Positions 12,972 through 40,423 of a stretch of DNA of 44,515 bases are shown piece by piece. Made by a program: the position numbers and the translations under genes. The notes below the pieces were generated by a model. The model saw nothing but the letters and a program-made list of their open reading frames with translations, had not been told where the DNA came from and did not search any database. Within the stretch, counting starts at the first letter, position 1. Every line of letters starts with the position of its first letter. Source of the DNA: a virus; UHGV virus genome UHGV-1858859; one strand, 5' to 3'.

Positions 12972-13000
12972 AACTATAATAGCCAACTATTCAGGTGTCA
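12972..13000 (-). promoter_or_regulatory. sigma70-like promoter TTGACA-N17-TATAGT with embedded palindrome
   Basis: Minus-strand reading ttgaca cctgaatagttggctat tatagt; contains ATAATAG-ccaa-CTATTCA (plus strand 12975-12992). Confidence 0.6.
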
Positions 13001-13005
13001 ACACT

Positions 13006-14247
13006 TTATTCCAAATCTTCTTCACTAACCTGATTCCACTCAGGCCGTTTGTCGTCTGCCGTTGTGATGCATGGGGCACCTGGTTTACGTGTGATGAAGT
13101 CTTTCAGTTCTTCTTCCGGCACAACTTTAACCGCTTCGGTCGGCGTCATGAGCACTTCTTTAGTCAGCTTGTCGCCGTAGAGTTCTGTTACTTTCTCCGC
13201 GTCTTTCCACGCACGATTGCCCATCTTACCTTCAACCAGCTTGTACCCAGGAACTTTCTTACCGGAATGCAACGCGGCAGCCATAGCTTTCTCAACCTTG
13301 TCGATGTGCTGGCGCAACAACGGCAACTTCTCGTACTCAGCTACGAGTTCCTCCGGCGTAAGTTCCAGCGCAAAGTCGTCCTCCAGTTCTTCCGCCAGCA
13401 CCGCGTTGACGGTTTTTGTACGCGCGGCGCACTGCTCTGAGAAACGGCACCATTGGCAACCGTCGACAGACGGCCTGAAGTCCGACGCTTTCAGGTTCTT
13501 TTTACCACGGAAATACGCATCAAGAGCTAACAGCGCCCGTTTCTGCGCAAACTTAGCGAACAGTTCCAGACCTTCAACCGAGATGTCCCACTCCGACGCG
13601 CCGCCAGCGTATGGCTGAAAGATGACCAGACGAACGGTTGTTATGTTATAACGTCTCTTGAGTCGGCGATAAACACCTAGAGCGTAGAGCATAAGCTGCT
13701 TGTTTTCTTTCGCTTCGACACGATGCCGTCCTGTTTTCAGGTCGCCGATGATAAGCATGTGCCCGTCAGTGTTAGCCAGTTCCTGAACGGCAACAAGGTC
13801 AGCGGTTCCGAACGTCTCAACGCCTTCATACCCAGGATGCAATACCTCAGTAAGATTGACGCGCATTTCCAGCTTGGCGTAAGTTGCTACATCGATAATC
13901 GGTTTGCAGTAGTCGGTGTACTTTCGCACCTGCTCAATCATGTCCGCCGTAATCAGTACCGCGCCTTTCATCGGGCTGATTAGCGCCTTAATCTGGCCTT
14001 TACCCTCATCCAGCACGTAAGCGCCAACTTCACGCTCTAACGGCAACGCAGTGCAGCGGATATAGGCGTTGAGATGGACTTCAGCTATGGTGTGGCACGC
14101 TGTCCCCGTAACGGCGGATTTACCCGACGTGTTAGGAATATCTTTTTCACAGGCCAGTGATGCAGCGCATGACAGCCATTTTTTAGCACCTGACGGCGAA
14201 AGTAAGGCGTGAACATCGTTATTGCCGCCGCGTTCTTTTAGAATCAT
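13006..14247 (-). CDS. PD-(D/E)XK nuclease, Cas4-like with Cys cluster
   Basis: IIGDLKTG motif, N-terminal LSCAASLAC and C-terminal CQWCRFSEQC cysteines consistent with a Cas4/RecB-like Fe-S nuclease. Confidence 0.65.
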   Translation of the reverse strand: MILKERGGNNDVHALLSPSGAKKWLSCAASLACEKDIPNTSGKSAVTGTACHTIAEVHLNAYIRCTALPLEREVGAYVLDEGKGQIKALISPMKGAVLITADMIEQVRKYTDYCKPIIDVATYAKLEMRVNLTEVLHPGYEGVETFGTADLVAVQELANTDGHMLIIGDLKTGRHRVEAKENKQLMLYALGVYRRLKRRYNITTVRLVIFQPYAGGASEWDISVEGLELFAKFAQKRALLALDAYFRGKKNLKASDFRPSVDGCQWCRFSEQCAARTKTVNAVLAEELEDDFALELTPEELVAEYEKLPLLRQHIDKVEKAMAAALHSGKKVPGYKLVEGKMGNRAWKDAEKVTELYGDKLTKEVLMTPTEAVKVVPEEELKDFITRKPGAPCITTADDKRPEWNQVSEEDLE

Positions 14248-14606
14248 CGTAAACTCTCCAAATACAAGTTTAATGCCTGTAGCTGTTCTTCTGAGGGGGT
14301 GAAAGAATCATCGCGATGTAAGTCGCTTAACTGTTGCAACATTCCTGCGAACTGACGTCTTGCGTCAACAGCGGCCATGTGATGCTTTTCACTTTTGTAT
14401 ATTAATGTTTTCGGGTAATCCTCAAGCCTACCAGAAGATTTATTCACGCGGAGCGCCCGGGCTTCATGCGCAATGTGGATGTACTTTTTGCCGTTTTGTA
14501 ACACAGTAGCTACGCCGCTGTTCTTTCTGCGGTCACCGACGGTGTAAACCTTGTCACCGCTGCGCAAATTAAGCCACCATTTATCCGTCATACCCTGCTC
14601 TCCCAC
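14244..14606 (-). CDS. hypothetical protein
   Basis: 120-aa ORF in the leftward early operon, overlapping neighbours by a few nt. Confidence 0.5.
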   Translation of the reverse strand: MGEQGMTDKWWLNLRSGDKVYTVGDRRKNSGVATVLQNGKKYIHIAHEARALRVNKSSGRLEDYPKTLIYKSEKHHMAAVDARRQFAGMLQQLSDLHRDDSFTPSEEQLQALNLYLESLR

Positions 14607-14860
14607 TGGTCAATTAAATGTCTGGTCTGGTGCTGGCAATGCATGGCCCATCCATACATCGACTCGAAGACATAAAAGTCAGGCTTGGCAAAAGTCGTGC
14701 GCTTAATCTGCGACACATGACGGCCTATATCTTTAGCCCGCGGTACTTTGCCTAAGTACGCCATCTCTTCCATCTGGTGCGCACCTGACGGCGCACGCAA
14801 CAGCCACAACGCCTCTGTGTTATCCCGCCTGTCAACGGCGCGGTAGAGTTGGTAAATCAT
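14588..14860 (-). CDS. hypothetical protein
   Basis: 90-aa ORF in the leftward early operon. Confidence 0.45.
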   Translation of the reverse strand: MIYQLYRAVDRRDNTEALWLLRAPSGAHQMEEMAYLGKVPRAKDIGRHVSQIKRTTFAKPDFYVFESMYGWAMHCQHQTRHLIDQWESRV

Positions 14861-14903
14861 AATTACGACCCTCAGTTAAAGCGGCCCGAAGGCCGCGAGA
14901 TAA

Positions 14904-15404
14904 TTATTCTTCTTCGAAATACTTGTTCTTGATTGCTGTCAGGCGTTCCAGGTACTCGGCCAGGTCTTCGTCTTTAATCGCGGCAATCTTCATCTTCTTA
15001 CCGGTGAACTCTTCCAGCAGTTCATCAGAATCGTCGCACGCGGCATCGCTCGGACCTTCGTTAATTGCATCGTCGATAGCCTGAATCTGGTCACGAAGAG
15101 ACTGGTAATCGACCTCTTCTTTCTCTTCTTCTGGTTCTGGCGTCGACTCCTCTACTTTAGCTTTACGCGGCTTACGTTTTGGCTTCTCTTCTTCTGCCGG
15201 TTTAGTGTCGACGATGTCTTCACCTTCAACCGGGATTTCTTTTGTTTCTTCTTTAATACTTTCAGAGAACTGCTCAATTTTATGAGCGGCTACTGCGGCA
15301 GCCTCTTTGGCAGTAGTTGGCGCGAACTGTTTCGCACTATTCGCAGCAATCAGTTCATGTGCAACTACGAAACGTTCCAGTAATACTAAGAATTTCTCTA
15401 ACAT
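14904..15404 (-). CDS. acidic early protein
   Basis: 166 aa, Glu/Asp/Lys-rich; first gene downstream of the leftward promoter; RBS GAGGAGAG 6 nt before the ATG. Confidence 0.55.
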   Translation of the reverse strand: MLEKFLVLLERFVVAHELIAANSAKQFAPTTAKEAAAVAAHKIEQFSESIKEETKEIPVEGEDIVDTKPAEEEKPKRKPRKAKVEESTPEPEEEKEEVDYQSLRDQIQAIDDAINEGPSDAACDDSDELLEEFTGKKMKIAAIKDEDLAEYLERLTAIKNKYFEEE

Positions 15405-15435
15405 TTGTTTCTCTCCTCTCGTTTGGTATGGGCTA

Positions 15436-15464
15436 ACTATAATAGTGAACTATTCACATGTCAA
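15436..15464 (-). promoter_or_regulatory. sigma70-like promoter TTGACA-N17-TATAGT with embedded palindrome
   Basis: Minus-strand reading ttgaca tgtgaatagttcactat tatagt; contains ATAATAG-tgaa-CTATTCA (plus strand 15439-15456). Confidence 0.6.
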
Positions 15465-15468
15465 TGGG

Positions 15469-15497
15469 CTTTTCTAAAATAATTAATATGGTACTAT
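15469..15497 (+). promoter_or_regulatory. candidate rightward extended -10 promoter with degenerate motif copy
   Basis: tggTACTAT (TG-n-TACTAT) at 15489-15497 with a poor -35 (cttttc); CTATTCA half-site at 15494-15500; about 30 nt upstream of the HTH gene. Confidence 0.35.
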
Positions 15498-15528
15498 TCA
15501 CATATCAACTAACTAAGGAGTAATTGTC

Positions 15529-15744
15529 ATGCAACCATCTGAACTAGGCATCCGTGTAGAAAAACGCCGTAAAGAACTCGGCATCTCCCAGCGCCGTCTG
15601 GCGGTGCTGACCGGGGTTTCCCAGGGCGCAATTAACCAGCTGGCACTTGGGGTAACCCAGGACGTCCGCCCGGCAACGCTGTTTAAACTGGCGGAAGTGC
15701 TGGAGGTAGACGCCAAGTGGCTGGCGCTAGGTGAAGGGGCTTAA
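15529..15744 (+). CDS. XRE/Cro-type helix-turn-helix transcriptional regulator
   Basis: 71 aa; HTH signature ISQRRLAVLTGVSQGAINQLALG; AAGGAG RBS; divergent from the leftward operon. Confidence 0.8.
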   Translation: MQPSELGIRVEKRRKELGISQRRLAVLTGVSQGAINQLALGVTQDVRPATLFKLAEVLEVDAKWLALGEGA

Positions 15745-15760
15745 TGCCCCTTTCTTTTTA
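15734..15760 (+). terminator. rho-independent terminator
   Basis: aaggggc-ttaat-gcccctt hairpin spanning the stop codon, followed by tttcttttt. Confidence 0.6.
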
Positions 15761-15761
15761 C

Positions 15762-18002
15762 CTACTCCAAATCCTCCTCTGTCACCACCAGCATTTCATT
15801 CGGTTCGTATATTGTCTTCGGTCTTAATCTGTCGCCCATCTTTTCCGGTATCCTGTATGTGCCCGGTATAACTTCACCGTTAACATCGCACCCTAGCATC
15901 AACTCACCATCTTTCAGCATCTTCTCGAGATGGTGGTTGGTGATGGCGTGGTCGCCTGAGTTCACCACTATCTGCCGTTGGGTAAAACCGCGTCCGGTGT
16001 CGTCAGCCTGCTGCAGGTCTTCCAGCGCGGCGAGTATTGATTCCTTACGCCCTTCATCCTTCCCGCGTTTTACAGCATTCTTTACGTTTTCTTTACCTTC
16101 TTTCGTCAGCCCTTCTTCCCGCTCTTTCTCCTCGTCAGTTTTGAACGGCTCGAAGCCCCACGGCATCAACACAAGTGCCTTATGTGGTTCTGGCAGGTCG
16201 AGGTTTACGATTGTGCCGTATTCCTCTGTGCTACCCAGGAACTCAACCGCACGGTACTCTTTCGGCGGCGGGGCTTCACGGAACTGTACCGACTCCAGCA
16301 CCATACCAACCGTCTTCTGTTGAGGCCCGTGCTTAAATTTAGAGTGGTATACATTTATCTGACGGTCGGTTGCGCGTTCAATTGTCAGTTCCACATCGAC
16401 GCCTGCGTACAGCGCGCCACTACCACGGGCTTTCTTTCCACCCTTCGGGGTATGGTGGACGACGCCTACCGCGGCTTTAGTTGTGTCGCGTACTTCTTTC
16501 ATGATTGCGATAACTTTACCCATACCGATTGCCGTTGATGAACTGTTCTCGTCGAACTTATCGATCGTCAGGGCCAGCGTCTGGTTGAGGGTGTCAAACG
16601 CAACCATGCCAATAGGTTCATCCCCCGCAGTTTCGCGCATTAACTTAATCAGGCTTTTCAGTTTTCCGACTTCGCCCATGTCGATGACATGTACATAATC
16701 TTTACCTTCCTCGCCGTATTTAGCCGCGAGTGCGTCAATACGTGTGCGTGTAGCCGCGCCACCCTCACCGTCGATATAGAAGTGATGGCAACGCTGGGTG
16801 TCCGCCCCGGCGAACCGGTATCCGGCGGCGCTAAGATACATCATCCCCAGCGTATAGAACGATTTGTATGTGCCCGACTCCCCGACGATATCCCAGATGC
16901 AGTCTGACGGCATATAACCTTCAACGACGAAATCAGCCTTTACCGGTTCCGGTAGCTCGTCCTCCTCTGAGCCATCATCGTCTTCCAGGTCGTCCAGGCT
17001 GCATGAAACAGATTCACGCGCACCCCATCCGATAGCCTCGGCAACTTCACTGAACGGCAGCCCGGTCGCATCACACGCATACTTCCACACCTCTTTCGGC
17101 GACATGCCTTCGGTTGCCGTAATGTCAGTGTCGTGGATCATGGTTACGTTCGGCGCTTCGTAGCCCTCGCGCGGGAAGCACAGCAGGAAGTCGTCCGGGC
17201 GCGGCGTAGGGTCGCTGTAATTTTCTGCATGTTCCGGCGTAGCTGGCATCTTAAGGCCGCGGGGCGTCATAACACCGCCGTACTCAAACGCCAGTGCCTC
17301 AAACGCATCAGTAAACGCGGTACGCAGTTCTTCTGGTATCTGGTAGTCAGATGCGCTGCTCACCTCGTAATCCGGGATGCCTTCCAGTAACTCTTCCGGG
17401 TCAATCAGGTCGTTTCGGCGCGACCAGATAACGGTAGAGCCAACCGGCGGCAGGTACATAGGCTGCGACAGAGTGAAACCGCTGCGGTCCGCGCCCATGC
17501 CTTTGAAGAAGTGTTCCAGCAATCCATGGCGAACACGGATGATGTCTCCGCCTTCAACCGGGCGGCCCAGCGGCATGACGACGCGAAAGCGTGGTGACTC
17601 ATCGGTATGGGATGCCGTGGTGTAGAGGCACATAGCCTGGCGGCTGCGCTTAACCAGGAGCACAGCTTCCTGATACTCTTCCGGTGTTGCGCTGTCGAAG
17701 TCAAGATACGCCAGCGACGATTTGCTTACAGACGCATCGCAGCGATAGAAGAAGCCTTTGCGTGCTTGCTTAAAGTCTCCAGTTTCCGGGTCTTTTACAG
17801 TGCTGTGCGTCGAGTCGCACGCGGCAGTGATATAACCAGGCGCGGTCTTCGGGTTAACCCCGTCACGAACAGCATCGAGCGGCCGGAGTAGCTCTTTCAG
17901 GTCGTCCAGTGTTGCCGCATGTGTTGTTCTGACGTTTATATCCTTTTTCTCAGCCCGCGCGTTGCGGCGGGACCACGAGTAGGATAAAATTACATCGGAC
18001 AT
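15762..18002 (-). CDS. DNA primase/helicase (primase-polymerase-like N-terminus, P-loop NTPase C-terminus)
   Basis: 746 aa; DFD and SHTD motifs in the N-terminal half; P-loop-like VGESGTYKS and Walker B-like MVAFDTL in the C-terminal half. Confidence 0.6.
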   Translation of the reverse strand: MSDVILSYSWSRRNARAEKKDINVRTTHAATLDDLKELLRPLDAVRDGVNPKTAPGYITAACDSTHSTVKDPETGDFKQARKGFFYRCDASVSKSSLAYLDFDSATPEEYQEAVLLVKRSRQAMCLYTTASHTDESPRFRVVMPLGRPVEGGDIIRVRHGLLEHFFKGMGADRSGFTLSQPMYLPPVGSTVIWSRRNDLIDPEELLEGIPDYEVSSASDYQIPEELRTAFTDAFEALAFEYGGVMTPRGLKMPATPEHAENYSDPTPRPDDFLLCFPREGYEAPNVTMIHDTDITATEGMSPKEVWKYACDATGLPFSEVAEAIGWGARESVSCSLDDLEDDDGSEEDELPEPVKADFVVEGYMPSDCIWDIVGESGTYKSFYTLGMMYLSAAGYRFAGADTQRCHHFYIDGEGGAATRTRIDALAAKYGEEGKDYVHVIDMGEVGKLKSLIKLMRETAGDEPIGMVAFDTLNQTLALTIDKFDENSSSTAIGMGKVIAIMKEVRDTTKAAVGVVHHTPKGGKKARGSGALYAGVDVELTIERATDRQINVYHSKFKHGPQQKTVGMVLESVQFREAPPPKEYRAVEFLGSTEEYGTIVNLDLPEPHKALVLMPWGFEPFKTDEEKEREEGLTKEGKENVKNAVKRGKDEGRKESILAALEDLQQADDTGRGFTQRQIVVNSGDHAITNHHLEKMLKDGELMLGCDVNGEVIPGTYRIPEKMGDRLRPKTIYEPNEMLVVTEEDLE

Positions 18003-18059
18003 GTTGTATTTCCTTCAGCAAGTAATTTGGCCTCGGCGCTCTAACGTCGGGGCTTTCTT

Positions 18060-18293
18060 TTATTCCAGGTCTTCTAAAGTAGCGGTCATTCCGCGAACTT
18101 CAGCAATGGCACTATATTTCCCGCCGACATTTTTCACGACACCGGATTTAACCAGCACCTTCAACGACCCTTCAATAATGGCGGAACTATAGTACCTAAA
18201 ATAACTGCGGCGCAAGTCCATAACGCTGCACGAACCTTTTTTACGTGTTAAGGAAACTACCGCCGTAAATACGCGTGACTGGAACTCGGTCAT
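18060..18293 (-). CDS. hypothetical protein
   Basis: 77-aa ORF; its ATG overlaps the stop of the upstream HTH gene (ATGA). Confidence 0.5.
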   Translation of the reverse strand: MTEFQSRVFTAVVSLTRKKGSCSVMDLRRSYFRYYSSAIIEGSLKVLVKSGVVKNVGGKYSAIAEVRGMTATLEDLE

Positions 18294-18460
18294 TTTACAT
18301 TCTCCTTAATCCACGCTTCCACTTTCTCCGGGTCAAACGTGCCAGGCTGGCGACGGCCCATAATGCGGATACAACAATCCGGGAACTTCCCGCTCTTTAA
18401 CCAGTTATTCAGCGTGCGACGGGTAACCCCGATACGCTCAGCCACCTCATTCTGTGTCAT
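18290..18460 (-). CDS. AlpA/Xis-like HTH DNA-binding protein (56 aa)
   Basis: MTQNEVAERIGVTRRTLNNWLKSGKFPD... matches the AlpA/excisionase-like HTH pattern; GAGGG RBS; below track cutoff. Confidence 0.5.
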   Translation of the reverse strand: MTQNEVAERIGVTRRTLNNWLKSGKFPDCCIRIMGRRQPGTFDPEKVEAWIKENVK

Positions 18461-18492
18461 TCTTAAACCCTCATTATCAGTTAACGAAACCG

Positions 18493-18521
18493 AGTATACA
18501 TTGCGAATAATGGGAAATCAA
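18493..18521 (-). promoter_or_regulatory. candidate sigma70-like promoter TTGATT-N17-TATACT
   Basis: Minus-strand reading ttgatt tcccattattcgcaatg tatact, about 30 nt upstream of the AlpA-like gene. Confidence 0.4.
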
Positions 18522-18892
18522 ACATAATTGCACCTATTGACATTATGAAAATCTTCGTTTAAGGTGCTTCTATATCTTAGTTACTTTGATTCCTGTTCAC
18601 CTTGTAAGAATGCTTAACCCGTGCGTTAAGCAAAGGGTTAAGCAGCAGGCTTACTGAACACGAGAATTATTGTAACTTTCCTTCCTAAGTATCTCCGGTT
18701 GCCCTGGGCAAGCTCTATTCTCATCGGCGGCATATCTCTTAAGTATCTGATTTTCTTAATGTGCCGTAGATTCGCAACCGTAAAAATGTAACGATTATTG
18801 GGCAGGCTTAGGGCCTGCCCTTTAGTTACCAAGTAATAAGAATAAAGGCACAACTCTACCTGAAGAATCACAACGGCAACGTAACTATTTTC

Positions 18893-18921
18893 TTGCACAC
18901 CCCAACATAATAGGATACTAT
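18893..18921 (+). promoter_or_regulatory. sigma70-like promoter TTGCAC-N17-TACTAT with embedded palindrome
   Basis: ttgcac accccaacataatagga tactat; motif ATAATAG-gata-CTATTCA at 18907-18924; a 36-bp block is repeated as an exact inverted copy at 40388-40423. Confidence 0.65.
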
Positions 18922-18946
18922 TCACTTATCGAAACGAGACAGATGA

Positions 18947-20284: not shown

Positions 20285-20455
20285 ATGAAACTGAATGACA
20301 TCGTAACCTGGACTGGTAGAAACGGAGAAAAGCGATTCGGGCTTATTGTTGCGTCAGACGGCAACAAGTACCGTGTTATGCGATGGCGTCAGTGGGCGAG
20401 ACGCCCGAGGTACTACTGGATTCGCGGTGAACAATTATCGTTAAAACACCAATAA
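20285..20455 (+). CDS. small basic protein (56 aa)
   Basis: ATG preceded by GCAGGAG RBS; Arg/Trp-rich; below track cutoff; no obvious promoter of its own. Confidence 0.3.
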   Translation: MKLNDIVTWTGRNGEKRFGLIVASDGNKYRVMRWRQWARRPRYYWIRGEQLSLKHQ

Positions 20456-20462
20456 AATTTAC

Positions 20463-20491
20463 TTGCACACTTGGATAGAATAGGCTACTAT
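20463..20491 (+). promoter_or_regulatory. sigma70-like promoter TTGCAC-N17-TACTAT with motif copy
   Basis: ttgcac acttggatagaataggc tactat; CTATTCA at 20488-20494; followed by leader cgaacgagaggagagacagaag-ATG. Confidence 0.65.
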
Positions 20492-20522
20492 TCATTTACA
20501 CGAACGAGAGGAGAGACAGAAG

Positions 20523-23580: not shown

Positions 23581-23666
23581 TATCTATTTTCTGCAATGAC
23601 TAGTTGACTATTACCTTAGACCCTATTATATTTACTCCATCAACAACGAGAACGGAGTAGAGAGAA

Positions 23667-24741: not shown

Positions 24742-24912
24742 ATGTTCAGTGACATCAACGCAGCAATCGAAGAAGCAATATGGCGGCGCTATAACGGCGA
24801 GCAACAGCGGCACTTTTGCCTCGTGCAACGCGGTAACATGATTGCCGTAGTGCAGGACCGCGATAACAAATATCCGAATGCAATGTGGACGACGAGGAAT
24901 TTCGTAGGATGA
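24742..24912 (+). CDS. hypothetical protein (56 aa)
   Basis: ATG 3 nt after the upstream stop; stop overlaps the next ATG (ATGA). Confidence 0.3.
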   Translation: MFSDINAAIEEAIWRRYNGEQQRHFCLVQRGNMIAVVQDRDNKYPNAMWTTRNFVG

Positions 24913-25145
24913 TTACCAGCATTCCGAACCTGATTAAAGAATACGGCACGATGGCGGAGACGTGCCGACGGACCGGCATCAACGAAATGACGATTGCAAA
25001 GTACAGCAAAGACGTTAACTGCGAGCGCCACGTAATTTATAACAACCGTCTTATGACGCATGTTAAGACAAGCCCGGTGTTATTCACTCGCCGCGGTATC
25101 ACTAAAACTGAGCAACGCATTGCTAAAGAGGAGAGTGAGGAGTGA
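24909..25145 (+). CDS. putative small DNA-binding protein
   Basis: HTH-like segment AETCRRTGINEMTIAKYS. Confidence 0.35.
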   Translation: MITSIPNLIKEYGTMAETCRRTGINEMTIAKYSKDVNCERHVIYNNRLMTHVKTSPVLFTRRGITKTEQRIAKEESEE

Positions 25146-28721: not shown

Positions 28722-28744
28722 AGCCCCGAAAGGGGCTTTCTTAT
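28722..28744 (+). terminator. stem-loop / partial terminator after the portal gene
   Basis: agcccc-gaaa-ggggct hairpin followed by ttcttat. Confidence 0.45.
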
Positions 28745-28780
28745 AGTATGCTATTAACTTTAGCGCCACAGGGTTTATCT

Positions 28781-30983: not shown

Positions 30984-31014
30984 AAGGCCCCATAATGGGG
31001 CCTTAGTTTTATTT
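30984..31014. terminator. bidirectional rho-independent terminator
   Basis: aaggcccc-ataat-ggggcctt hairpin with T-runs on both strands (agttttattt on plus, ttttatcatc on minus); lies between convergent genes. Confidence 0.6.
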
Positions 31015-31530
31015 AAATCGCGCAGGCATTAACACCATAAAGGCCGTGTTTGAAAATTGTATTTTGCATCCTCTGGTTTGGTCCTGGAAATCGAAACGAG
31101 CAATTTCATTTTTGTATGCCTTAGAAATCTTGTACGCGTCTGCCAAATAGCGCAGAGTGAACCCTATACTGTCGACAACACCCGGTGTGATGTGCGCCAC
31201 GCGTCTCCAGTCAGGAAAGTTTCCTTCTACAACATCTACCGGAAGTGTACATATAAGCGCACGATTATCGTCATAGAAAGATACACTGCCGTTGTCGTGG
31301 TTTACCTCTGCGTAGTTAAATTTAGAAGGCTCTCTCCCTTTGATGTCTATGAGAGTCCCTTTCTCAACGTTGGTCTTCACATTGTCGCAGAACAATCTAT
31401 GACCGTCCGTAGACACTATCAATCCTTCAGGGTCTATGTAAAAAGCGTTCAAATAGTAGCGAACATCATTTTTAGCCCTGCATATTTTCGCCCCTACATA
31501 CGCAGGGAAAGTAATTACTGTAGTAACCAT
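31009..31530 (-). CDS. truncated DnaN (DNA polymerase III beta sliding clamp)-like protein
   Basis: DVRYYLNAFYIDPEGLIVSTDGHRLF, VVEGNFPDWRRV and C-terminal AFMVLMPARF match E. coli DnaN segments (DVRYYLNGMLFE...ATDGHRLAV, VDGRFPDYRRV, AYVVMPMRL) recalled from memory; only 173 aa against 366; AGGAG RBS and own promoter. Confidence 0.6.
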   Translation of the reverse strand: MVTTVITFPAYVGAKICRAKNDVRYYLNAFYIDPEGLIVSTDGHRLFCDNVKTNVEKGTLIDIKGREPSKFNYAEVNHDNGSVSFYDDNRALICTLPVDVVEGNFPDWRRVAHITPGVVDSIGFTLRYLADAYKISKAYKNEIARFDFQDQTRGCKIQFSNTAFMVLMPARFK

Positions 31531-31556
31531 TTCTCATCTCCTGTTTAAGTTAACTG

Positions 31557-31585
31557 AATAGTACCCTATTATGTTGGTGCGCGCA
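31557..31585 (-). promoter_or_regulatory. sigma70-like promoter TTGCGC-N17-TACTAT with embedded palindrome
   Basis: Minus-strand reading ttgcgc gcaccaacataataggg tactat, with ATAATAG-ggta-CTATTCA. Confidence 0.6.
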
Positions 31586-31861
31586 AACTATTTATTTACG
31601 TATTCCAGTTATTCCACTCAATTGTAAACGTTGGAATAAACTATTCGAATAGTTGACTTTTCACTGAAAATATGATAAGCTCCACCTGAGCTTGTGAAGT
31701 ATGAGCAAGCGACCGCGGCGCGGGCAGGTAACGGAGCGGGACGTAAGTCCTGAGTGTAGTTACGCTGACGCGTTCGGAAGGGCCATACTCTATTGCTTGT
31801 GTAAAAAGTAACTGGTTTACTGAGATTACGCCGTTTCTATGTTTAAATGATAAGGACTAGC

Positions 31862-31888
31862 GCCCCGCTTTAAGGCGGGGCTTTACTT
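31862..31888 (+). terminator. stem-loop with short T-run just upstream of the Rz-like gene
   Basis: gccccgc-tttaag-gcggggc followed by tttactt; function unclear (terminator or attenuator-like). Confidence 0.35.
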
Positions 31889-31905
31889 ATTGAGAAAGGG
31901 GAAAC

Positions 31906-32292
31906 ATGAATCTTAAAGCAACTGTCGTAGCCGGAGCATGTTTCGTCGTCCTAGCCTACGCACACGGCATCTATCAATACCGCAGCGGCTGGGGTGAAGG
32001 CCGTGCTAATCTCGTTTCGCAGCAACAGCAGAAAGCACAGGCTGAGCTGACGAAGAAAACACAACGGCAGCAGCAGGATGAATCAAAGGCCGCCGCCGCT
32101 GACAACGAAGGCAAGACGAAATCAGAGGTGATTACCCGTGAAGTCGTTAAGTACATTAAAACGCCTGGCCGCAGCGTGTGCACTTTCGACGATGCTCGCG
32201 TCCTGCTCAAGTCCCACGCCGTTGCCAACGCCAATTCCATCCCCGGATACGACGATGATGCAGCCGCCGTGCAAACTGGCACCGCCAAGTAG
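31906..32292 (+). CDS. i-spanin (Rz-like)
   Basis: N-terminal transmembrane segment (ATVVAGACFVVLAYA), Gln/Lys-rich coiled-coil region, overlapping lipoprotein ORF in another frame; AAGGGGA RBS. Confidence 0.6.
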   Translation: MNLKATVVAGACFVVLAYAHGIYQYRSGWGEGRANLVSQQQQKAQAELTKKTQRQQQDESKAAAADNEGKTKSEVITREVVKYIKTPGRSVCTFDDARVLLKSHAVANANSIPGYDDDAAAVQTGTAK

Positions 32293-34296: not shown

Positions 34297-34596
34297 ATGG
34301 CTAAGACCGGAAAAGGCTTGCCGCGCAGCCTTCAGAATGTCGACTTCGGCGACTTTGATATCCCAGTCACGCCTGCTACTACCAGCGTAGTTGGTGGCGT
34401 TAAAAAGTCGGCTACTGTAGCCGCACCTGCGGCCATTACTGCTGCTGCCGGAGTTCAGGCCGTCGCAGTCCCGACTAAGGCAGAGTTTGATGCGCTTGTA
34501 GCGGAGTACAACAAACTCCGAACCGATGTTACCGCGCTGCGCACTACCGTAGCAAATTTGTTGACTGCGCTTAAAAACGCAGGAACCGTAAGCTAA
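34297..34596 (+). CDS. hypothetical head-associated protein
   Basis: 99 aa, Ala/Thr/Val-rich with C-terminal helical segment; AAGAGG RBS. Confidence 0.45.
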   Translation: MAKTGKGLPRSLQNVDFGDFDIPVTPATTSVVGGVKKSATVAAPAAITAAAGVQAVAVPTKAEFDALVAEYNKLRTDVTALRTTVANLLTALKNAGTVS

Positions 34597-34608
34597 AGGA
34601 GCTTAAAA

Positions 34609-34959
34609 ATGGTTGATGTAATTAAACGTCGCATTACTGGTGTCTCCGACGACTCCCCGGCCGATGGTCAGGTAGAAATTGACATGGAGAATATTTCTCC
34701 GGCGTCTTTCTTTACCGCACTTGCGGCCACCACCGCAGTTACGGCAGGACAGACCATTACGCTGACCGTAGCAGTAACCGGAGGGGCCGAACCGTATTCA
34801 TACCAGTGGTACAAAGATAACAACGCTATCGCTGGCGCAAACGCTGCTTCCTATGCTAAAGCGTCAACCACTACCGCAGATTCGGGCACGTATAAAGTGG
34901 TTGTTCACGATGTGTATGGTAATATTATCTCCAGCAGCACCGTAGCAACGGTATCTTAA
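34609..34959 (+). CDS. Ig-like domain protein
   Basis: PYSYQWYKDNNAI ... SGTYKVVVHDVYG pattern; second Ig-like protein in the head module. Confidence 0.5.
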   Translation: MVDVIKRRITGVSDDSPADGQVEIDMENISPASFFTALAATTAVTAGQTITLTVAVTGGAEPYSYQWYKDNNAIAGANAASYAKASTTTADSGTYKVVVHDVYGNIISSSTVATVS

Positions 34960-34995
34960 TACGGCGGCCCTTCGGGGCCGTAATAAGGAAAGGTC

Positions 34996-35175
34996 ATGGC
35001 AGATAATTACGTAATCCGCGAAAAGTACACCCACGTTGATATTGTTGACGGTCAGGTAATGCCGGTTCGCGGTGTTGTAGAAGCGGATGAACTGGTTGCG
35101 ACTCAACCGGACAACGAAGAAGCGCACAACAACGGCGGTGGTACTAAGCGTCGTCGCCGTAAGTCAGAGGAATAA
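34996..35175 (+). CDS. small acidic protein with basic C-terminus (59 aa)
   Basis: AAGGAAAGG RBS; ends KRRRRKSEE; below track cutoff. Confidence 0.35.
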   Translation: MADNYVIREKYTHVDIVDGQVMPVRGVVEADELVATQPDNEEAHNNGGGTKRRRRKSEE

Positions 35176-35178
35176 TTT

Positions 35179-35691
35179 ATGCCGCTAATCGTGGAAACTG
35201 GGGTGATCGTCCCAAATGCCGACAGTTACATTAGTCTGGCTGACGCCCGCGCGTTAGCGGCTAATTATGGCCTTGAGCTGCCGGAAGACGATACCGCAGC
35301 AGAGGTGGCCTTACGCAACGGTGCTACTTATGTAGGGCTTGCAGAACCGCAGATGTGCGGTCGTCGAGTATCCGCCGAACAGTCTCTTGCATACCCCCGC
35401 ACCGGCGTTACGTTAAACGGGTTCCCGGTGGCCAACAACGCCATTCCGAAACAGGTGATTCTTGCGCAGGTAATCGCTGCCGCTACATATGGCGAGGGCA
35501 CCGAAGTCCGGGCTAACTCAGACGGCCGCGCCGTGCAGACTGAGCGTGTCGAGGGTGCGGTAACAGTGACCTACTTCAACAATGGCAACAGTGGCGCTAC
35601 GACCGCGATTACCGCTGCTGACGACGCTTTACGCCCGTTATTGTGTGGTGGTCTTAACAATGGTTTCTCGTTTAACGTGTACCGGGGTTAA
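35179..35691 (+). CDS. head-tail connector/adaptor protein
   Basis: Position between head and neck genes; assignment by synteny. Confidence 0.4.
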   Translation: MPLIVETGVIVPNADSYISLADARALAANYGLELPEDDTAAEVALRNGATYVGLAEPQMCGRRVSAEQSLAYPRTGVTLNGFPVANNAIPKQVILAQVIAAATYGEGTEVRANSDGRAVQTERVEGAVTVTYFNNGNSGATTAITAADDALRPLLCGGLNNGFSFNVYRG

Positions 35692-35693
35692 AA

Positions 35694-36308
35694 ATGGCGA
35701 AGACTAAATCAGAGATATTCACGCTAATCGGTTCCGAGCTACCGGACAACACGACCGGACTTATTACGCCTGCGAAGTTGCGCGGGGTATTAACCCAGAT
35801 GGCTGACTCACCTATTTACGCCACTCCGGGTGTTAAAGAGGTTGAAGTTCTCCGCGCTGCGTCGACAGTAGCGCAAGCGCCTACCGCAGTAGATACGGCG
35901 TTGCAGGTATCGTTCGGCTCTGCTCAGGGTAGTGCATCTGACCTGGTAATGATTAATGCTGCGGGGTTGGTTACGTTCAACACCGCGGGTAACTACGCCG
36001 TTCGCATCAAGTTACAGGCAGGCCGCACTGGTGCTAGCGGAACCTCTATCTTGCTATCGTGCATTCTGGTTAATGGCGCACAATACGGCTCGCCAGCCGC
36101 TACGAAACTGGTAAGCGCGGATACTACAATTCCTATTGAGTCTCGTGTTGCTATTAACCCGACCGCAGGCCCGACGTTTGCCGTTGAGATTATGCGGGAT
36201 AGCACCGGGAGTAACTTCGGCGGCGTATACCCACAAGCCGCTACGGTAACCGCATGGGGTACCGCCCCGTCGGCACTACTGGTTATTTCGAGACTGGAGG
36301 CCGCTTGA
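35694..36308 (+). CDS. hypothetical structural protein
   Basis: 204-aa ORF starting 3 nt after the upstream stop. Confidence 0.45.
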   Translation: MAKTKSEIFTLIGSELPDNTTGLITPAKLRGVLTQMADSPIYATPGVKEVEVLRAASTVAQAPTAVDTALQVSFGSAQGSASDLVMINAAGLVTFNTAGNYAVRIKLQAGRTGASGTSILLSCILVNGAQYGSPAATKLVSADTTIPIESRVAINPTAGPTFAVEIMRDSTGSNFGGVYPQAATVTAWGTAPSALLVISRLEAA

Positions 36309-36402
36309 TGAATAAGTTCACATGTGGTGTAGTTTTTGGTTTTCTTACCGCGGTAGTCTTGCACAGTTACGGTGTTCTTTTGACGCTGCAAGAGGTGCTA
36401 AA

Positions 36403-36762
36403 ATGAGCACCGCTTTCAGTAAACGTATGCAAGGCGTGGGTACACGCCTGCTAACCAAATTCGGTAGCACGGTATCTCTGGTTCGCGCTGGCTCGAAAGT
36501 GTGGGATGAAGTTCTCGGTGAGTATGTCCGGTCCGCGGATGAAGTGCTGCCGTTGAAAGCTGTTCCGGTTCCGGTAAACGCGGGACTGGTGAACGGTACG
36601 ACGATTCAGGCGGGAGACGTGATTGTTAAAGCCGATTGCAGCGTCGTACCGAATATGGAAGACAAGGTGCAATTCGGCGGCGAGCAATGGTCCGTCGTAG
36701 CCATTGAGAAGAAGATGGTTAACGATGATGTCGTGGCCTACTTTATTCAGGTGAGAAAATGA
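36403..36762 (+). CDS. head closure / neck protein
   Basis: ATG at 36403 (MSTAFSKR); positional assignment. Confidence 0.4.
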   Translation: MSTAFSKRMQGVGTRLLTKFGSTVSLVRAGSKVWDEVLGEYVRSADEVLPLKAVPVPVNAGLVNGTTIQAGDVIVKADCSVVPNMEDKVQFGGEQWSVVAIEKKMVNDDVVAYFIQVRK

Positions 36763-37154
36763 GTTTCGCGCTGGACGTCTCTAAGTTTGTGGAAAAGGCG
36801 AAGAAGAATCCTGAGAAGGTGATGCGTCAGGTGTCTATCAAGCTGTTTTCCGCTATCATAAAGGCTAGTCCAGTGGACACCGGCCGCTTTCGTATGAACT
36901 GGATGGCGTCTGGTGGTACTTCTGCTTCCGGGATTACGGACGCCACCGATAAATCAGGAAACACGGCAACCGGAAACGCTACAAGTTTCGTACTGAAAGC
37001 CACCGACTGGCACGAGTTCACGCTAACAAATAATCTGCCGTATGCTCAACGGCTGGAGTATGGTTGGTCGCAGCAAGCGCCGCAGGGCATGGTCAGGACT
37101 AACGTGTCTCGCTTCCAGCAACTCATTAACGAAGAAGCCAACAAGGTGAAATGA
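36759..37154 (+). CDS. neck / tail completion protein
   Basis: ATGA overlap with the upstream gene; positional assignment. Confidence 0.4.
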   Translation: MSFALDVSKFVEKAKKNPEKVMRQVSIKLFSAIIKASPVDTGRFRMNWMASGGTSASGITDATDKSGNTATGNATSFVLKATDWHEFTLTNNLPYAQRLEYGWSQQAPQGMVRTNVSRFQQLINEEANKVK

Positions 37155-37567
37155 TGGGCTACTTTGAGGACTTAACCAAAGCATTTGATGTGCCGCTGGT
37201 AGCCTTCGGAACAACCAACGGCATCAAGGTCTCGCTTGAAAACATCGACGCGCCGACGTCAACCGATACGCCGTATCTGGCAAGTTACATGTTACTTGCG
37301 GATACAGAACAGGCGGATTTGTTCTTCACAGAACAACGCTCAGGTGTTTATCAGGTCGACATTAACTACGCATCGGTGAAAGGTAGCGCGCCAATCAATA
37401 AAATGGCAGACTTACTTAACACGGCATTTAAAGCAGGTAAGTCATTTTCACGTAACGACATCTGCGCCGAGGTTCAATCGGTAAGCCTGGGGCCGCTGAT
37501 TGTAGAAAACGGATGGGCCAAACGACCATTGTCAATTAACTTTATTGCATTCACCAAGAGGCTGTAA
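37151..37567 (+). CDS. tail terminator-like protein
   Basis: ATGA overlap; immediately upstream of the major tail gene. Confidence 0.4.
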   Translation: MMGYFEDLTKAFDVPLVAFGTTNGIKVSLENIDAPTSTDTPYLASYMLLADTEQADLFFTEQRSGVYQVDINYASVKGSAPINKMADLLNTAFKAGKSFSRNDICAEVQSVSLGPLIVENGWAKRPLSINFIAFTKRL

Positions 37568-37569
37568 AT

Positions 37570-38736
37570 ATGGCTACAACTCCTTTTAAGGGCGCGAATA
37601 CAGCGCAATTCTATGTGGCGGAAGTGACCCCGGGCGTAACCCCAGACAACCCTGTCTGGTCGCCGCTGCGCAATACGGGCGGTGTTCCTGCGGTAACCCG
37701 CGATGCGCTGACCTCCAACGAACTCGACGGCAGCCGAGAAACTACATCCATCCGAACCGGCAACAAACAGGTTAGCGGGGAGTACGCCATCGAACTTAGC
37801 TCCCGTAGCCAGGATGATTTCCTCGCGGGTGCTATGACTTCTACGTGGCAAGCTGGGGTAGAGATTACGGGTGCAGAAATTACGGTCGCTCCAGCAGGTA
37901 AAACATTCACCCGCGCTGCTGGTAGCTTCATTACTGACGGTGTAGAAGTTGGCGACCTGATTGCGTTCACCGGCTTAACCAGCGACAACGCAAAACCGTT
38001 TATCGTGACCGAGGTTTCTGCTCTTGTAGTTACGGGTTCTGGCATTCAACACACGCTGACAGCAGAGACTGTAACCACCGGCGCTAAAACAGGCGATAAA
38101 TTGGAAACCGGTAACGCATGTAAGACGTTCTCCATCCTGACATGGTTCAAAGGACAGTGCGGGAACCCTGACGCGTACATGCTGACCAAAGGCGTGGAAA
38201 TCTCCGGTTTCACCATTGAACAGGCCGTAAACGCGATGGTGACAGGCAGCTTCCCGTTCATCGGTCTGAGTCAGGAAATTCTTTCTGCACGGCCAGCAGG
38301 TTCTGATTTCTCTCAGGTGACGTTTACCGATGAGCCGTTCTCATCCGTAGATGTGTCTGTGTTCGACGGTTCTACGCCGTTGCGTTGCGATACTCTGACC
38401 ATCACCAACGACAACGGTGCTTCCGCACAGTTCGAACTCGGCAACAGTAGTGTTGCGTTCGTGGAACGTGGCCGCGCAGCTAACACATTCTCCATCTCTG
38501 GTAAGCTGTACGACATGGCGATGATTCAGAAGTTTATCAACGAACAGCAGGTAGAGATTAACTCTATTCTGGCGGGGGTAAACGGGGCTATGTCTTTCAG
38601 CCTGAAACGTGCCGAGTTGACCGCAGTTACGCCAGAAATATCTGGCCCAGAATCAATCACCCAGAGCATAGAGGGACAGTCCACCGGCAATCAGTACCAG
38701 TCATCTATCGTAATTCAACGTATCACCTACGCATAA
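37570..38736 (+). CDS. major tail protein
   Basis: 388 aa, Thr/Gly/Val-rich, followed by a strong terminator and located before the chaperone and tape measure genes. Confidence 0.6.
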   Translation: MATTPFKGANTAQFYVAEVTPGVTPDNPVWSPLRNTGGVPAVTRDALTSNELDGSRETTSIRTGNKQVSGEYAIELSSRSQDDFLAGAMTSTWQAGVEITGAEITVAPAGKTFTRAAGSFITDGVEVGDLIAFTGLTSDNAKPFIVTEVSALVVTGSGIQHTLTAETVTTGAKTGDKLETGNACKTFSILTWFKGQCGNPDAYMLTKGVEISGFTIEQAVNAMVTGSFPFIGLSQEILSARPAGSDFSQVTFTDEPFSSVDVSVFDGSTPLRCDTLTITNDNGASAQFELGNSSVAFVERGRAANTFSISGKLYDMAMIQKFINEQQVEINSILAGVNGAMSFSLKRAELTAVTPEISGPESITQSIEGQSTGNQYQSSIVIQRITYA

Positions 38737-38740
38737 AACT

Positions 38741-38766
38741 AAGGCCCCTTTCGGGGCCTTTTTCTT
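38741..38766. terminator. rho-independent terminator (near-identical copy of the one at 6141)
   Basis: aaggcccc-tttc-ggggcctt followed by tttctt; also terminates the convergent minus-strand cassette. Confidence 0.6.
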
Positions 38767-38995
38767 ACTCATCAATATTACTTCGGTACTCCCGTAACTT
38801 CTCCAGACTTTCTATTGCTTCCGCTAAGTCGGTTCCGGTGTCCTTGTGCCCGCGAAGGCCCATACACAGAAGTTTCTTCAACGCGTGCTGTAGTGCCGGG
38901 TCGCGGATGTCGAAGGCGCGTAGCACATCATAAACGTCTACTGTCATTGTGCTGCCGTGAGTATTTGTCATTGTGCGGTTGTATTTTGAAGTCAT
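38765..38995 (-). CDS. hypothetical protein
   Basis: 76-aa ORF, last gene of the minus-strand cassette. Confidence 0.45.
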   Translation of the reverse strand: MTSKYNRTMTNTHGSTMTVDVYDVLRAFDIRDPALQHALKKLLCMGLRGHKDTGTDLAEAIESLEKLREYRSNIDE

Positions 38996-40122
38996 CCCAG
39001 CATCTCCGGTGAAATAGTTAAACGTGCCACCTCCCCATATTCGGCGCTATAAGTTATCACGTTAGCACTACGACCGGACATCCAGCCCCCTCGCGATGCG
39101 TAAGCATCTTTCGCGGCCAGGGTTCGGTGTTGTTCGACTACCATATTGCGGCTTTCTACTAATTTCTGATGATGTAGATGCCCTACATGAGCGTAGCTGT
39201 ATGTGCTTTCTCCAAAAGCCTTACGGAATTTAGAAATCATTACTGACTCTATGGCGTCGAATCTCGCACGGTGTCCATGATGCATGAATAGCGTAGTTTT
39301 CCCGTGCTGGACCATCTTGTATACGTCGGGGGAGGTGTCCACAAATACGCGAGGTTCGTTATCGTACAATGTACAGAACATTTCGGCGAGCCATACAGAG
39401 CCTACAGGGTCGTGGTTACCTTGAACTATTAAGAGTTTGACTGTGTGATGTTTAACAAGCGCCATATCGACAACACGACGCACCATACGAATCATGTAGC
39501 GAACTAGTTTCTGATAGCGAGTATCGGCGTCTAACACATGACGCGACTCAGGGGTAACGGCATCAAGACTATCGAAGTGCGCGAAGTCTCCTAGCAGGTT
39601 AATAACTCCTGTTCCCGCGTCTGGTGCTTTCTGGAACGCTGCGTCAAACCAACGGGAGAACAGGTCTTCCGCAATCTTCATGTCCCAGTCGTCGCCGCTC
39701 TCGTCAGCCCAGGCCAGCATACCGAGATGGAAATCAGACACAGTGTAAAGATTGAGTAGTTTATCGTCGCGTTTGGCGCGAACGGCTTTAACAGGAGCAA
39801 CGGGGGTAATCTCCGACTTCATGCCTTCGATTACGGCCTTCATTAACTCGACCTGACGTTCTGCGTCAGTGTCGGTCTTAACCCATTGCAGTTTAGTGTT
39901 GCCGAACTCGTCCACCAGAGACGACGTACCTTTAATCTTGTAGCCGTCAGGCACAAGGTGACTAACGTCGCGACCGTGGCCTACACCTTTCTTAGCCAGC
40001 TTCGCTTTACGGATACGGATAACGCGGTCTGAGATTCCGTACTTACGTGCGATATCAATAATTTTTGTTCCGGCGTTCAATTCTTCCCGTAACTGTTCGT
40101 CGGTTATTTTCTTATGAGCCAT
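38992..40122 (-). CDS. calcineurin-like metallophosphoesterase with N-terminal HTH
   Basis: Metallophosphatase motifs GDFAHFD, GNHD, GHLHH; N-terminal HTH-like segment KIIDIARKYGISDRVIRIRKAK. Confidence 0.7.
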   Translation of the reverse strand: MAHKKITDEQLREELNAGTKIIDIARKYGISDRVIRIRKAKLAKKGVGHGRDVSHLVPDGYKIKGTSSLVDEFGNTKLQWVKTDTDAERQVELMKAVIEGMKSEITPVAPVKAVRAKRDDKLLNLYTVSDFHLGMLAWADESGDDWDMKIAEDLFSRWFDAAFQKAPDAGTGVINLLGDFAHFDSLDAVTPESRHVLDADTRYQKLVRYMIRMVRRVVDMALVKHHTVKLLIVQGNHDPVGSVWLAEMFCTLYDNEPRVFVDTSPDVYKMVQHGKTTLFMHHGHRARFDAIESVMISKFRKAFGESTYSYAHVGHLHHQKLVESRNMVVEQHRTLAAKDAYASRGGWMSGRSANVITYSAEYGEVARLTISPEMLG

Positions 40123-40161
40123 GCTTTACTTCCTCGTGTTTAGGATTTGTCCTATACTAGC

Positions 40162-40353
40162 TCACTTCTCTTTGACATTCGAGTTGCACGCCCAGATTAA
40201 AATAAATACCCACGGCAGCAGAACCCAACCGAGAAACAGATTAGCCATGAATATCGCTAATTTAGCTTTATGGTTGCGCATATGCGCCACGAGAAATGGG
40301 ATAAAATAAACTAAAACGATAATGATTAAGAAGAACATAGTAATACCTGTCAT
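40162..40353 (-). CDS. superinfection-immunity-like small membrane protein
   Basis: YFIPFLVAHMRNHKAKLAIFMANLFLGWVLLPWVFILIWA resembles the Imm_superinfect family signature (from memory); AGGAG RBS. Confidence 0.5.
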   Translation of the reverse strand: MTGITMFFLIIIVLVYFIPFLVAHMRNHKAKLAIFMANLFLGWVLLPWVFILIWACNSNVKEK

Positions 40354-40394
40354 GGGGTAGCTCCTGTTTGAGTTAACATTGTTGGTGTAAGTGA

Positions 40395-40423
40395 ATAGTA
40401 TCCTATTATGTTGGGGTGTGCAA
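40395..40423 (-). promoter_or_regulatory. sigma70-like promoter TTGCAC-N17-TACTAT, exact inverted copy of the 18893 promoter block
   Basis: Minus-strand reading cttgcacaccccaacataataggatactattcactt is identical over 36 nt to plus strand 18892-18927. Confidence 0.65.

Follow-up and report, generated by a model that had tools for sequence, protein, structure and literature searches.

A conserved dyad over the sigma70-type promoters of a Kagunavirus genome and its candidate 434-Cro-like reader

The closest described counterparts of the element considered here, an 18-bp inverted repeat which recurs in the virus genome UHGV-1858859 (44,515 nucleotides, the whole of which is referred to below as the window), are found in two genome papers on Kagunavirus phages. 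Seven "conserved promoter sequences" were reported by PHIRE for VB_EcoS-Golestan (PMC7203180), and seven "phage RNAP promoters" (RNAP, RNA polymerase) with the consensus tgAATAGTa-ccTATTat-T were reported by the same program for fBC-Eco01 (PMC9825357). The two sets consist of the same sequences at orthologous positions and represent the same repeats as those of the window; neither paper mentions the dyad symmetry, the surrounding sigma70 hexamers or a candidate repressor. The motif itself has thus already been published, under a wrong label, and its reading as a dyad operator with a Cro-like candidate protein is new in the literature searched, in which no paper proposing an operator or a Cro-like regulon for Guernseyvirinae was found. 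From sequence comparison we propose, with moderate confidence, that the dyad (T/G)AATAG-N4-CTATT(C/A) is the operator of a phage-encoded dimeric helix-turn-helix (HTH) repressor, most likely the 71-aa 434-Cro-like protein encoded at 15529-15744.

Regulators of the 434 repressor and Cro type bind as dimers to dyads of 14-18 bp, and the 434 operator is 14 bp long with a weakly specified centre. The present system resembles 434 in that the protein is a full-length homologue with the same five-helix fold, that the sites lie over predicted promoter elements, that a pair of sites occupies the divergent region by the gene, and that the 14-bp core AATAG-N4-CTATT has the length of the 434 operator and a weakly specified centre. 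It differs from 434 in having no CI partner, integrase or lysogeny module, in the spread of its sites over approximately ten promoters genome-wide rather than within a single immunity region and in a half-site unrelated to ACAA. With dispersed sites and neither CI nor a lysogeny module, this is not a lambdoid immunity region. The operators of P22 c2 and Cro (18 bp, AAG-N4-CTT type) share the 7+4+7 layout with a variable central 4 bp, and the 71-aa protein has the DNA-binding domain of P22 c2 among its best matches in both sequence and fold; the half-site is another one, however, and P22, a lambdoid phage, is temperate and has a bistable switch. The C proteins of restriction-modification systems, such as C.AhdI and C.BclI, are likewise small HTH_3 proteins and are among the top fold matches. 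C proteins bind promoter-overlapping dyads and time expression after DNA entry into a naive cell. They differ in serving one or two restriction-modification promoters, as activator and repressor at adjacent sites, whereas in the phage a paired OL/OR arrangement is at most represented by the two sites O1 and O2 described below.

The motif ATAATAG-N4-CTATTCA was present in six strong copies, each within a sigma70-type promoter of the form TTGnnn-N17-TAnnnT. When up to two mismatches were allowed, ATAATAGNNNNCTATTCA matched eight times in the window versus 0.17 times expected, and none of 100 shuffles reached eight; the core AATAG-N4-CTATT occurred exactly six times (approximately 0.04 expected) and was the most over-represented dyad of the genome. 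A weight matrix built solely from sites of other genomes, with a maximum of 29.0 bits, scored the six strong sites at 26.6-28.1 bits, and simulated windows scored with the same matrix gave a mean peak of 12.4 and a highest value of 19.2 bits. The scan for further copies brought out a second tier at 14-18 bits (15483, 23597, 8496, 28740 and 31646), four of which (8496, 15483, 23597 and 31646) have a promoter-like context and are kept in relatives, 28740 being doubtful. The counts and hexamers confirm the initial annotation, made from the letters of the window alone, in placing the motif in at least six sigma70-like promoters, in the hexamers and 17-bp spacers of two promoter classes and in a degenerate copy at 15483-15500 beside the HTH gene; its site list was incomplete, the promoter-associated copies at 8496, 23597 and 31646 having been missed. 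The dyad lies inside nearly all early and DNA-replication promoters of the phage.

Class 1 comprises leftward promoters of the form TTGAC(A/G)-N17-TATAGT. The copy at 12976-12993 lies in TTGACA(13001..12996)-N17-TATAGT(12978..12973), with its centre at about -18.5, and the targets of this promoter are an Enc34-type single-stranded DNA-binding protein (SSB) gene (12290-12916) and the DNA polymerase gene. O1 (15439-15456) lies in TTGACA(15464..15459)-N17-TATAGT(15441..15436), the targets being 14904-15404, a ProQ_C-like gene and a DUF2800/PD-(D/E)XK exonuclease gene. The same site extends over the -35 of TTCACA-N16-TAAAAT (15453-15480), a possible alternative promoter, read rightward, for the HTH gene. 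A weaker class 1 copy, ATAGTAGTTCGCTATTAG at 8496-8513, lies in TTGACG(8521..8516)-N17-TATAGT(8498..8493) at the 3' end of a resolvase-like gene, and a perfect core is found at the orthologous sites in other genomes.

Class 2 promoters, TTGC(A/G)C-N17-TACTAT, were found in both directions. Rightward, the copy at 18907-18924 lies in TTGCAC(18893-18898)-N17-TACTAT(18916-18921), with its centre at -12.5, ahead of the small early genes from 18947, and a copy with one mismatch (AGAATAG..., 20477-20494) lies in TTGCAC(20463-20468)-N17-TACTAT(20486-20491). The latter promoter is part of an approximately 75-nt promoter-operator-leader module (20440-20510), which is conserved though the genes on either side differ among phages. 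Leftward, the copy at 31555-31572 in TTGCGC(31586..31581)-N17-TACTAT(31563..31558) serves a cassette at 31009-31530, and the copy at 40392-40409 in TTGCAC(40423..40418)-N17-TACTAT(40400..40395) serves a cassette at 38765-40353 encoding a superinfection-immunity protein and a metallophosphatase. All but two of the promoter ranges first assigned were correct, 12972-13000 and 31557-31585 each being off by one (12973-13001 and 31558-31586). An identical block at two of the promoters, which had been described as 36 nt long, does exist but measures 37 nt, 18892-18928 being the reverse complement of 40388-40424, so that the original pairing was shifted by one.

Two degenerate dyads were located on the -35 of rightward promoters. 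The first, TGACTAG-TTGA-CTATTAC at 23597-23614, lies on TTGACT(23604-23609)-N17-TATATT(23627-23632), with its centre at -33.5, upstream of small genes and the terminase/head operon, and is conserved in Jersey as ATAATAGTTGACTAGTAT. The second, CGAATAG-TTGA-CTTTTCA at 31646-31663, lies on TTGACT(31653-31658)-N17-TAAGCT(31676-31681) after the first minus-strand cassette; the orthologue of this promoter is host promoter HP1 in the fBC-Eco01 listing (PMC9825357). The degenerate site O2 (TTAATATGGTACTATTCA, one core mismatch, 15483-15500) has its centre 44 bp from that of O1 and covers the extended -10 TGgTACTAT (15489-15497) upstream of the XRE (HTH_3) gene, and orthologues were present in every Kagunavirus genome examined. 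O2 with its flank (15479-15508, TTGATAtgTGAATAGTACCATATTAA) looks like a decayed tandem duplicate, at a 44-bp offset, of the class 1 promoter 15464 (TTGACAtgTGAATAGTTCACTATTATAGT), which appears to have been re-used on the opposite strand as the promoter of the HTH gene.

The distribution of the motif was determined in five complete Kagunavirus genomes (the window included), three Kagunavirus-like metagenomic contig segments and three complete Jersey-type genomes, one of them from a Proteus phage. It was present in all 11, with 5-9 copies at corresponding promoters in each of the eight complete genomes and 5-7 copies in each of the three contig segments of 10-20 kb. Kagunavirus sites gave the logo A-(T/G)AATAG-N4-CTATT(C/A)-(A/G), and the Jersey-type sites form a perfect 16-bp palindrome, TAATAG-N4-CTATTA. 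In Cornellvirus SP-031 and its relative TS6, an unbiased dyad scan returned the variant ATATTA-N6-TAATAT as the top AT-rich dyad, with five copies in each genome. The copies lie at orthologous promoters of the form TTGACA/TTGCAA-N17-TAATAT, which serve early genes or minus-strand cassettes and in some cases have leaders orthologous to those in the window. With one mismatch allowed, the Kagunavirus/Jersey motif was not found in the Cornell-type genomes, nor the Cornell motif in the others. When IMG/VR was scanned with the exact 18-mer, single chance matches were widespread, the multi-copy contigs were mostly of Kagunavirus genome size (41-45 kb), and no new lineage or regulator was encountered.

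With respect to its position relative to the promoter, the class 1 dyad (promoters 8521, 13001 and 15464) begins 2 nt past the -35 and ends on the first three -10 bases, giving a centre at -18.5, while the class 2 dyad (18893, 20463, 31586 and 40423) is inverted relative to class 1, begins 8 nt past the -35 and contains the -10, giving a centre at -12.5. At promoters 23604 and 31653 the central tetramer TTGA together with the next CT forms the -35 TTGACT (centre -33.5), and in Jersey-type cassette promoters a fourth register was observed, centred at -15.5, in which the arm CTATTAT supplies the -10 TATTAT. The dyad therefore occurs in four registers and in both orientations relative to transcription, and the initial statement that a palindrome covers the -10 holds for class 2 but not for class 1, where it is mostly in the spacer, nor for the two further promoters, where it covers the -35. 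The arms, at 2 bits per position, did not vary in a set of 25 distinct Kagunavirus sites and 13 sites of the Jersey type, and the central four positions carried 0.1-0.6 bits, apart from sites in which they also provide the TA of a -10. The separation between the -35 and the start of the dyad at the orthologous promoters of the immunity/phosphatase cassette is 8 nt in Kagunavirus and 5 nt in Jersey; in both, the dyad is intact with conserved flanks. Phage Jersey has a Kagunavirus-like SSB gene and promoter (approximately 90% nucleotide identity versus approximately 70% in typical Jersey-type phages), and the flank of the operator at this promoter is the Jersey-type CTATTAA and not the Kagunavirus CTATTCA.

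These observations bear on an explanation without any dedicated regulator, in which the motif is an extended promoter consensus within a portable promoter-leader cassette, spread by duplication and recombination, for which host polymerase suffices, and in which the palindromic look comes from AT-rich, near self-complementary -10 hexamers (TACTAT, TATTAT, TATAGT). The 37-nt block at two promoters, the approximately 75-nt module conserved between different flanking genes and the part taken by one dyad arm in the -10 or -35 hexamer of each class are all in its favor, as is phage Jersey, where the Kagunavirus-like sequence stops just past the SSB promoter (about 32930). Such cassettes would recall the promoter-early stem-loops (PeSLs) of T4, which are mobile regulatory cassettes and, like the phage modules, conserved promoter-leader units before unrelated small genes that bound hypervariable regions; the phage modules have no stem-loop, however, and a role in recombination is at most suggested, by the one junction beside the SSB promoter. 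Promoter cassettes may serve as recombination linkers for gene shuffling. We nevertheless regard this promoter-only explanation as unlikely. It does not account for four registers and both orientations of the dyad, for a variable centre between invariant arms, for the 3-bp shift in orthologous promoters with the dyad intact, or for the symmetric change of both arms in Cornell-type phages. Moreover, the invariant G5 and C10 lie in spacer positions at which sigma70 polymerase is not known to read bases, and the opposite strand has no usable -35. For the latter reason generally bidirectional promoters were also rejected, the one exception being a non-conserved candidate at 40373-40401. Taken together, these comparisons indicate that the dyad is an element in its own right, beyond the promoter consensus, and the original proposal of one regulon fits this picture of an independent dyad laid over sigma70-type promoters.

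The published reading of the repeats in fBC-Eco01, as promoters for a phage-encoded RNA polymerase, draws on their being the dominant repeated 20-mers detected by PHIRE. We give it almost no credence. No RNA polymerase, sigma factor, integrase or CI-type repressor was found in annotated relatives or in Pfam scans of the open reading frames (ORFs) of the window, and rather than a fixed asymmetric motif the repeats are a palindrome, used in both orientations and four registers, within sigma70-type -35/-10 pairs. All perfect copies overlap predicted -35/-10 hexamers, the promoters being consensus predictions, and the spacers are 17 bp, or 18 bp at a few Jersey sites. As the spacers are 17 bp and not the over-long 19-20 bp, activation of the MerR type through the spacer was rejected.

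The initial annotation had named the XRE-type HTH protein (15529-15744, plus strand) as one of two candidate regulators, and it proved to be a sound one. The 71-aa product matched Pfam HTH_3 with an E value of 2.5e-12 and aligned with 434 Cro in the PDB over residues 6-68 (E 2.2e-6, approximately 40% identity, 71 aa each). Its predicted structure consists of five helices with a predicted local distance difference test score (pLDDT) of 78, and the best fold matches of the model were 434 repressor, 434 Cro, SinR, C.AhdI and P22 c2, several of which have been solved on operator DNA. The first Gln of the 434 recognition helix is retained. The gene adjoins the 125-bp divergent region 15404-15529, which holds the strong O1 and weak O2, 44 bp apart, and is followed by a bidirectional terminator at 15733-15753; in Jersey just one good half-site was found at the O2-equivalent spot. 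Orthologues were present in all three dyad-bearing lineages (Kagunavirus, Jersey-type and Cornell-type), and this was the sole Cro/CI-type HTH protein found to be common to them. The recognition helix reads SQGAINQ in all Kagunavirus, SQSLITH in Jersey-type and TQSAISH in Cornell-type phages, which parallels the half-site variants, and within Kagunavirus it does not vary, even between proteins that are otherwise only 75-79% identical. A database search for remote homologues of this or the AlpA-like HTH protein in other contexts gave only Guernseyvirinae-like relatives, and no partner CI-type repressor with a cleavable C-terminal domain and no integration functions are annotated in Bas73, Jersey, K1G or phiEc3; the 71-aa product is itself a DNA-binding domain and nothing more. 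Kagunavirus genome papers describe strictly lytic phages without lysogeny genes.

The second regulator named at the outset was the AlpA-like HTH_17 protein (56 aa, 18290-18460, minus strand; Pfam HTH_17 E 5.9e-7, match to residues 1-53), the product of the first gene of the leftward AlpA-like/p76/helicase-primase operon. That this protein reads the dyad, possibly activating the weak class 2 promoters, alone or with the Cro-like protein, is in our view rather improbable. It does carry a DNA-binding HTH_17 domain and is present in all genomes with exact AATAG-N4-CTATT, its own putative promoter (18521..18493) is free of the dyad, and in the RNA-seq data of Kagunavirus K1B4 only four genes are 'early', one of them an HTH gene which is probably the AlpA-like one. 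On the other hand, it is missing from SP-031 and TS6, both of which have the variant dyad network, its helix TRRTLNNW is shared by the window and Jersey, where the flanking bases are different, and the helix changes to SPMTLNRW in K1G and TRQTINNW in phiEc3 and Bas70, where the motif is unchanged. At 56 aa the protein has no dimerisation module, with 17-bp spacers a MerR-type realignment is not needed, and symmetric dyads are not known as the usual targets of Xis/MerR-like HTH_17 proteins. An earlier notion that the motif is absent from Cornellvirus, and so tracks AlpA, was overturned by ATATTA-N6-TAATAT in SP-031 and TS6. The adjacent p76 (18060-18293) was also rejected as a reader, because unrelated replacements occur in K1G, phiEc3, Bas70 and two metagenomic relatives with the motif unchanged, and it is absent from Cornell-type phages.

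The label 'AlpA-like', given in the initial annotation, suggests a further comparison, with the AlpA of Pseudomonas aeruginosa (Pae) and the lambdoid Q proteins, whose binding element also lies within a sigma70 promoter, between the -35 and -10. Eight helices make up Pae AlpA, whose DNA contacts extend to residue 142 and whose N-terminal ring reaches into the RNA exit channel; as a monomer it binds the 6-bp GGGACG between the -35 and -10, and it needs a sigma-dependent pause (PMC9371919). The phage protein differs in being 56 aa long and an HTH only, and the phage motif is a symmetric dyad of 16-18 bp. Antitermination of the Q/AlpA type was ruled out by this architecture, with no N-terminal ring and 56 aa in all.

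Another phage DNA-binding protein common to all lineages could in principle read the dyad, for example the NinH-like Fis-type HTH protein (24885-25145), although we consider the chance slim. It is found, with 64-69% identity, in phages of the Kagunavirus, Jersey and Cornell types, its HTH differing by lineage. However, NinH/Fis-type proteins are low-specificity DNA benders, the gene belongs to the operon that precedes the terminase genes and has no operator pair near it, and its own promoter has no operator but the degenerate -35 copy. It is very unlikely that the reader is a transcription factor of the hosts, E. coli and Salmonella. The motif does occur in phages of E. coli, Salmonella and Proteus, and there is a loose likeness to the ARG box arms TGAATA...TATTCA, but the spacing of the ARG box is off by 4 bp, Cornell-type and Jersey-type Salmonella phages carry different dyads in the same host genus, and multi-copy occurrence in IMG/VR is limited to Kagunavirus-like contigs. 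As for the AlpA-like protein, its absence from Cornell-type phages with a variant dyad and the variation of its helix within Kagunavirus under a constant motif make it a poor candidate, and the Cro-like protein encoded at 15529-15744 is the reader we prefer.

Starting from the observed motif, its placement over promoters, its conservation with lineage variants and the family of the protein, we infer that the Cro-like protein dimerises, binds the dyad and represses with a hierarchy of affinities. After injection, host sigma70 polymerase would fire the near-consensus class 1 (leftward DNA-metabolism) and class 2 (rightward early and cassette) promoters, and the Cro-like protein would build up from its own weak promoter. 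It would then fill the dyads over the -10 in class 2, over the spacer and upstream -10 edge in class 1 and over the -35 in the two late-operon promoters, and polymerase would be excluded. Perfect sites would be shut first, and the degenerate ones (its own promoter, 8496 and the two pre-structural promoters) later or less, the expected outcome being autoregulation and temporal order.

Several observations weigh against this proposal. Within Kagunavirus the whole promoter module of 33-75 nt is conserved and the dyad is inseparable from the promoter, so the case for the dyad depends on comparing promoter classes and genera with one another. A homodimer would not be expected to give the consistent asymmetry of the Kagunavirus sites (ATAATAG versus TGAATAG). 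In Cornell-type phages the dyads are less strict, and the degenerate pattern TAWTAS-N4-STAWTA, present in four copies each in SP-031 and TS6 versus 0.03 in simulated sequence, was defined post hoc, after the sites had been seen. The covariation of helix and half-site comes from three lineages only, and any protein that follows the phylogeny, the NinH-like HTH included, fits equally; it is therefore consistent with the Cro-like reader but is not proof. Finally, RNA-seq of Kagunavirus K1B4, followed to 120 min and sorted into three coarse classes, showed no obvious early shut-off, though these data are too coarse to serve as a test (PMC12645636).

If a Cro-type repressor does run the transcription programme of a virulent phage without a lysogeny module, the mechanism would be a textbook one, an ordinary gene switch which would not be surprising. 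The operator reading would replace the wrong label of "phage RNA polymerase promoters" and, if true, would provide defined repressible promoter parts for payload timing in Kagunaviruses and Jerseyviruses, which are commonly isolated for therapy and biocontrol, are represented in the BASEL collection and are small engineering chassis. A bolder extension, to which we attach a low probability, is that the lineage dyads define 'immunity groups' of virulent phages (Kagunavirus KAATAG, Jersey TAATAG and Cornell ATATTA), in which an orphan Cro-like repressor, as a single-input module over nearly all promoters, silences co-infecting genomes of the same type. In such a scheme the sites might be contested by a second factor, such as the AlpA-like or the NinH-like protein, and portable promoter-operator-leader cassettes would plug newly acquired genes straight into the regulon.

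Further features were noted at or near the sites. An operator-like sequence, CTTATAGTATGCTATTAA at 28740-28757, lies between the genes for the portal and for head morphogenesis, just past a terminator (28722-28737); it is kept in other Kagunaviruses, has no -35/-10 pair around it, and its orthologue is among the PHIRE sequences of the Golestan paper (PMC7203180). The rightward candidate TTAACA-N17-TAGTAT at 40373-40401 (plus strand) shares the 40392 operator with the leftward cassette promoter and might re-initiate transcription of the tail genes; K1G shows no conservation of it. Promoter 31653 is followed by a leader of approximately 200 nt and a strong terminator (31862-31881) directly before the gene at 31906, and this segment (31653-31905), for which Rfam gave no match, could be a small RNA or an attenuated leader. 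A leader AAACGAGA(G)GAG is found between the -10 and the start codon at promoters 15464, 18893, 20463 and 23604 and is kept from Kagunavirus to Jersey-type phages, and a second leader type, beginning ACACCAACAAT, lies downstream of the 8521 and 40423 promoters. The conserved leader AAACGAGAGGAG is not -10-like. Another product of the phage, a ProQ C-terminal-like protein (14244-14606), may be an RNA-binding partner.

The window was found to be a complete, circularly permuted Kagunavirus genome (Guernseyvirinae) of 44.5 kb, from a virulent phage of E. coli, the nearest record being Escherichia phage vB_VIPECOTPH05A at 95% identity, with relatives in E. coli and Salmonella numbering hundreds, and its gene order agrees with that of annotated relatives. 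The structural operon runs rightward from approximately 25.4 kb across the window end to 6.1 kb, with the two minus-strand cassettes embedded in it and read leftward. It is followed by leftward DNA-metabolism operons (6.2-15.4 kb), the lone rightward HTH gene, the leftward AlpA-like operon (15.8-18.5 kb) and the rightward small early and lysis genes (18.9-23.5 kb). Near-identical bidirectional terminators, AAGGCCCC-N3/4-GGGGCCTT, are located at 6141-6160, 30984-31004 and 38741-38760, where rightward structural genes meet the leftward blocks (the two minus-strand cassettes and the DNA-metabolism block); the terminator dyad is AAGGC with a 10-bp spacer and has four copies in the window. An Rfam scan of the whole window returned no family above threshold.

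Between the AlpA-like gene and the 18893 promoter there is approximately 430 bp of conserved non-coding DNA (18461-18892), which holds a hairpin with a 9-bp stem and T-run (18800-18820) and the dyad-free leftward promoter candidate TTGATT-N17-TATACT (18521..18493), and which may be an origin or control region. A 95-aa ORF at 18638-18925 (minus strand) is probably not a gene, because the homologous DNA of Jersey and K56 contains in-frame stops. The DNA polymerase ORF (8980-12132, minus strand) encodes 1050 aa versus 726 aa in phage Bas73, and the Pfam DNA_pol_A match covers residues 388-464 only; the ORF likely contains a large insertion, an intein or mobile element. A polymerase gene of similar extra length was observed in Proteus phage ABTNLP14.

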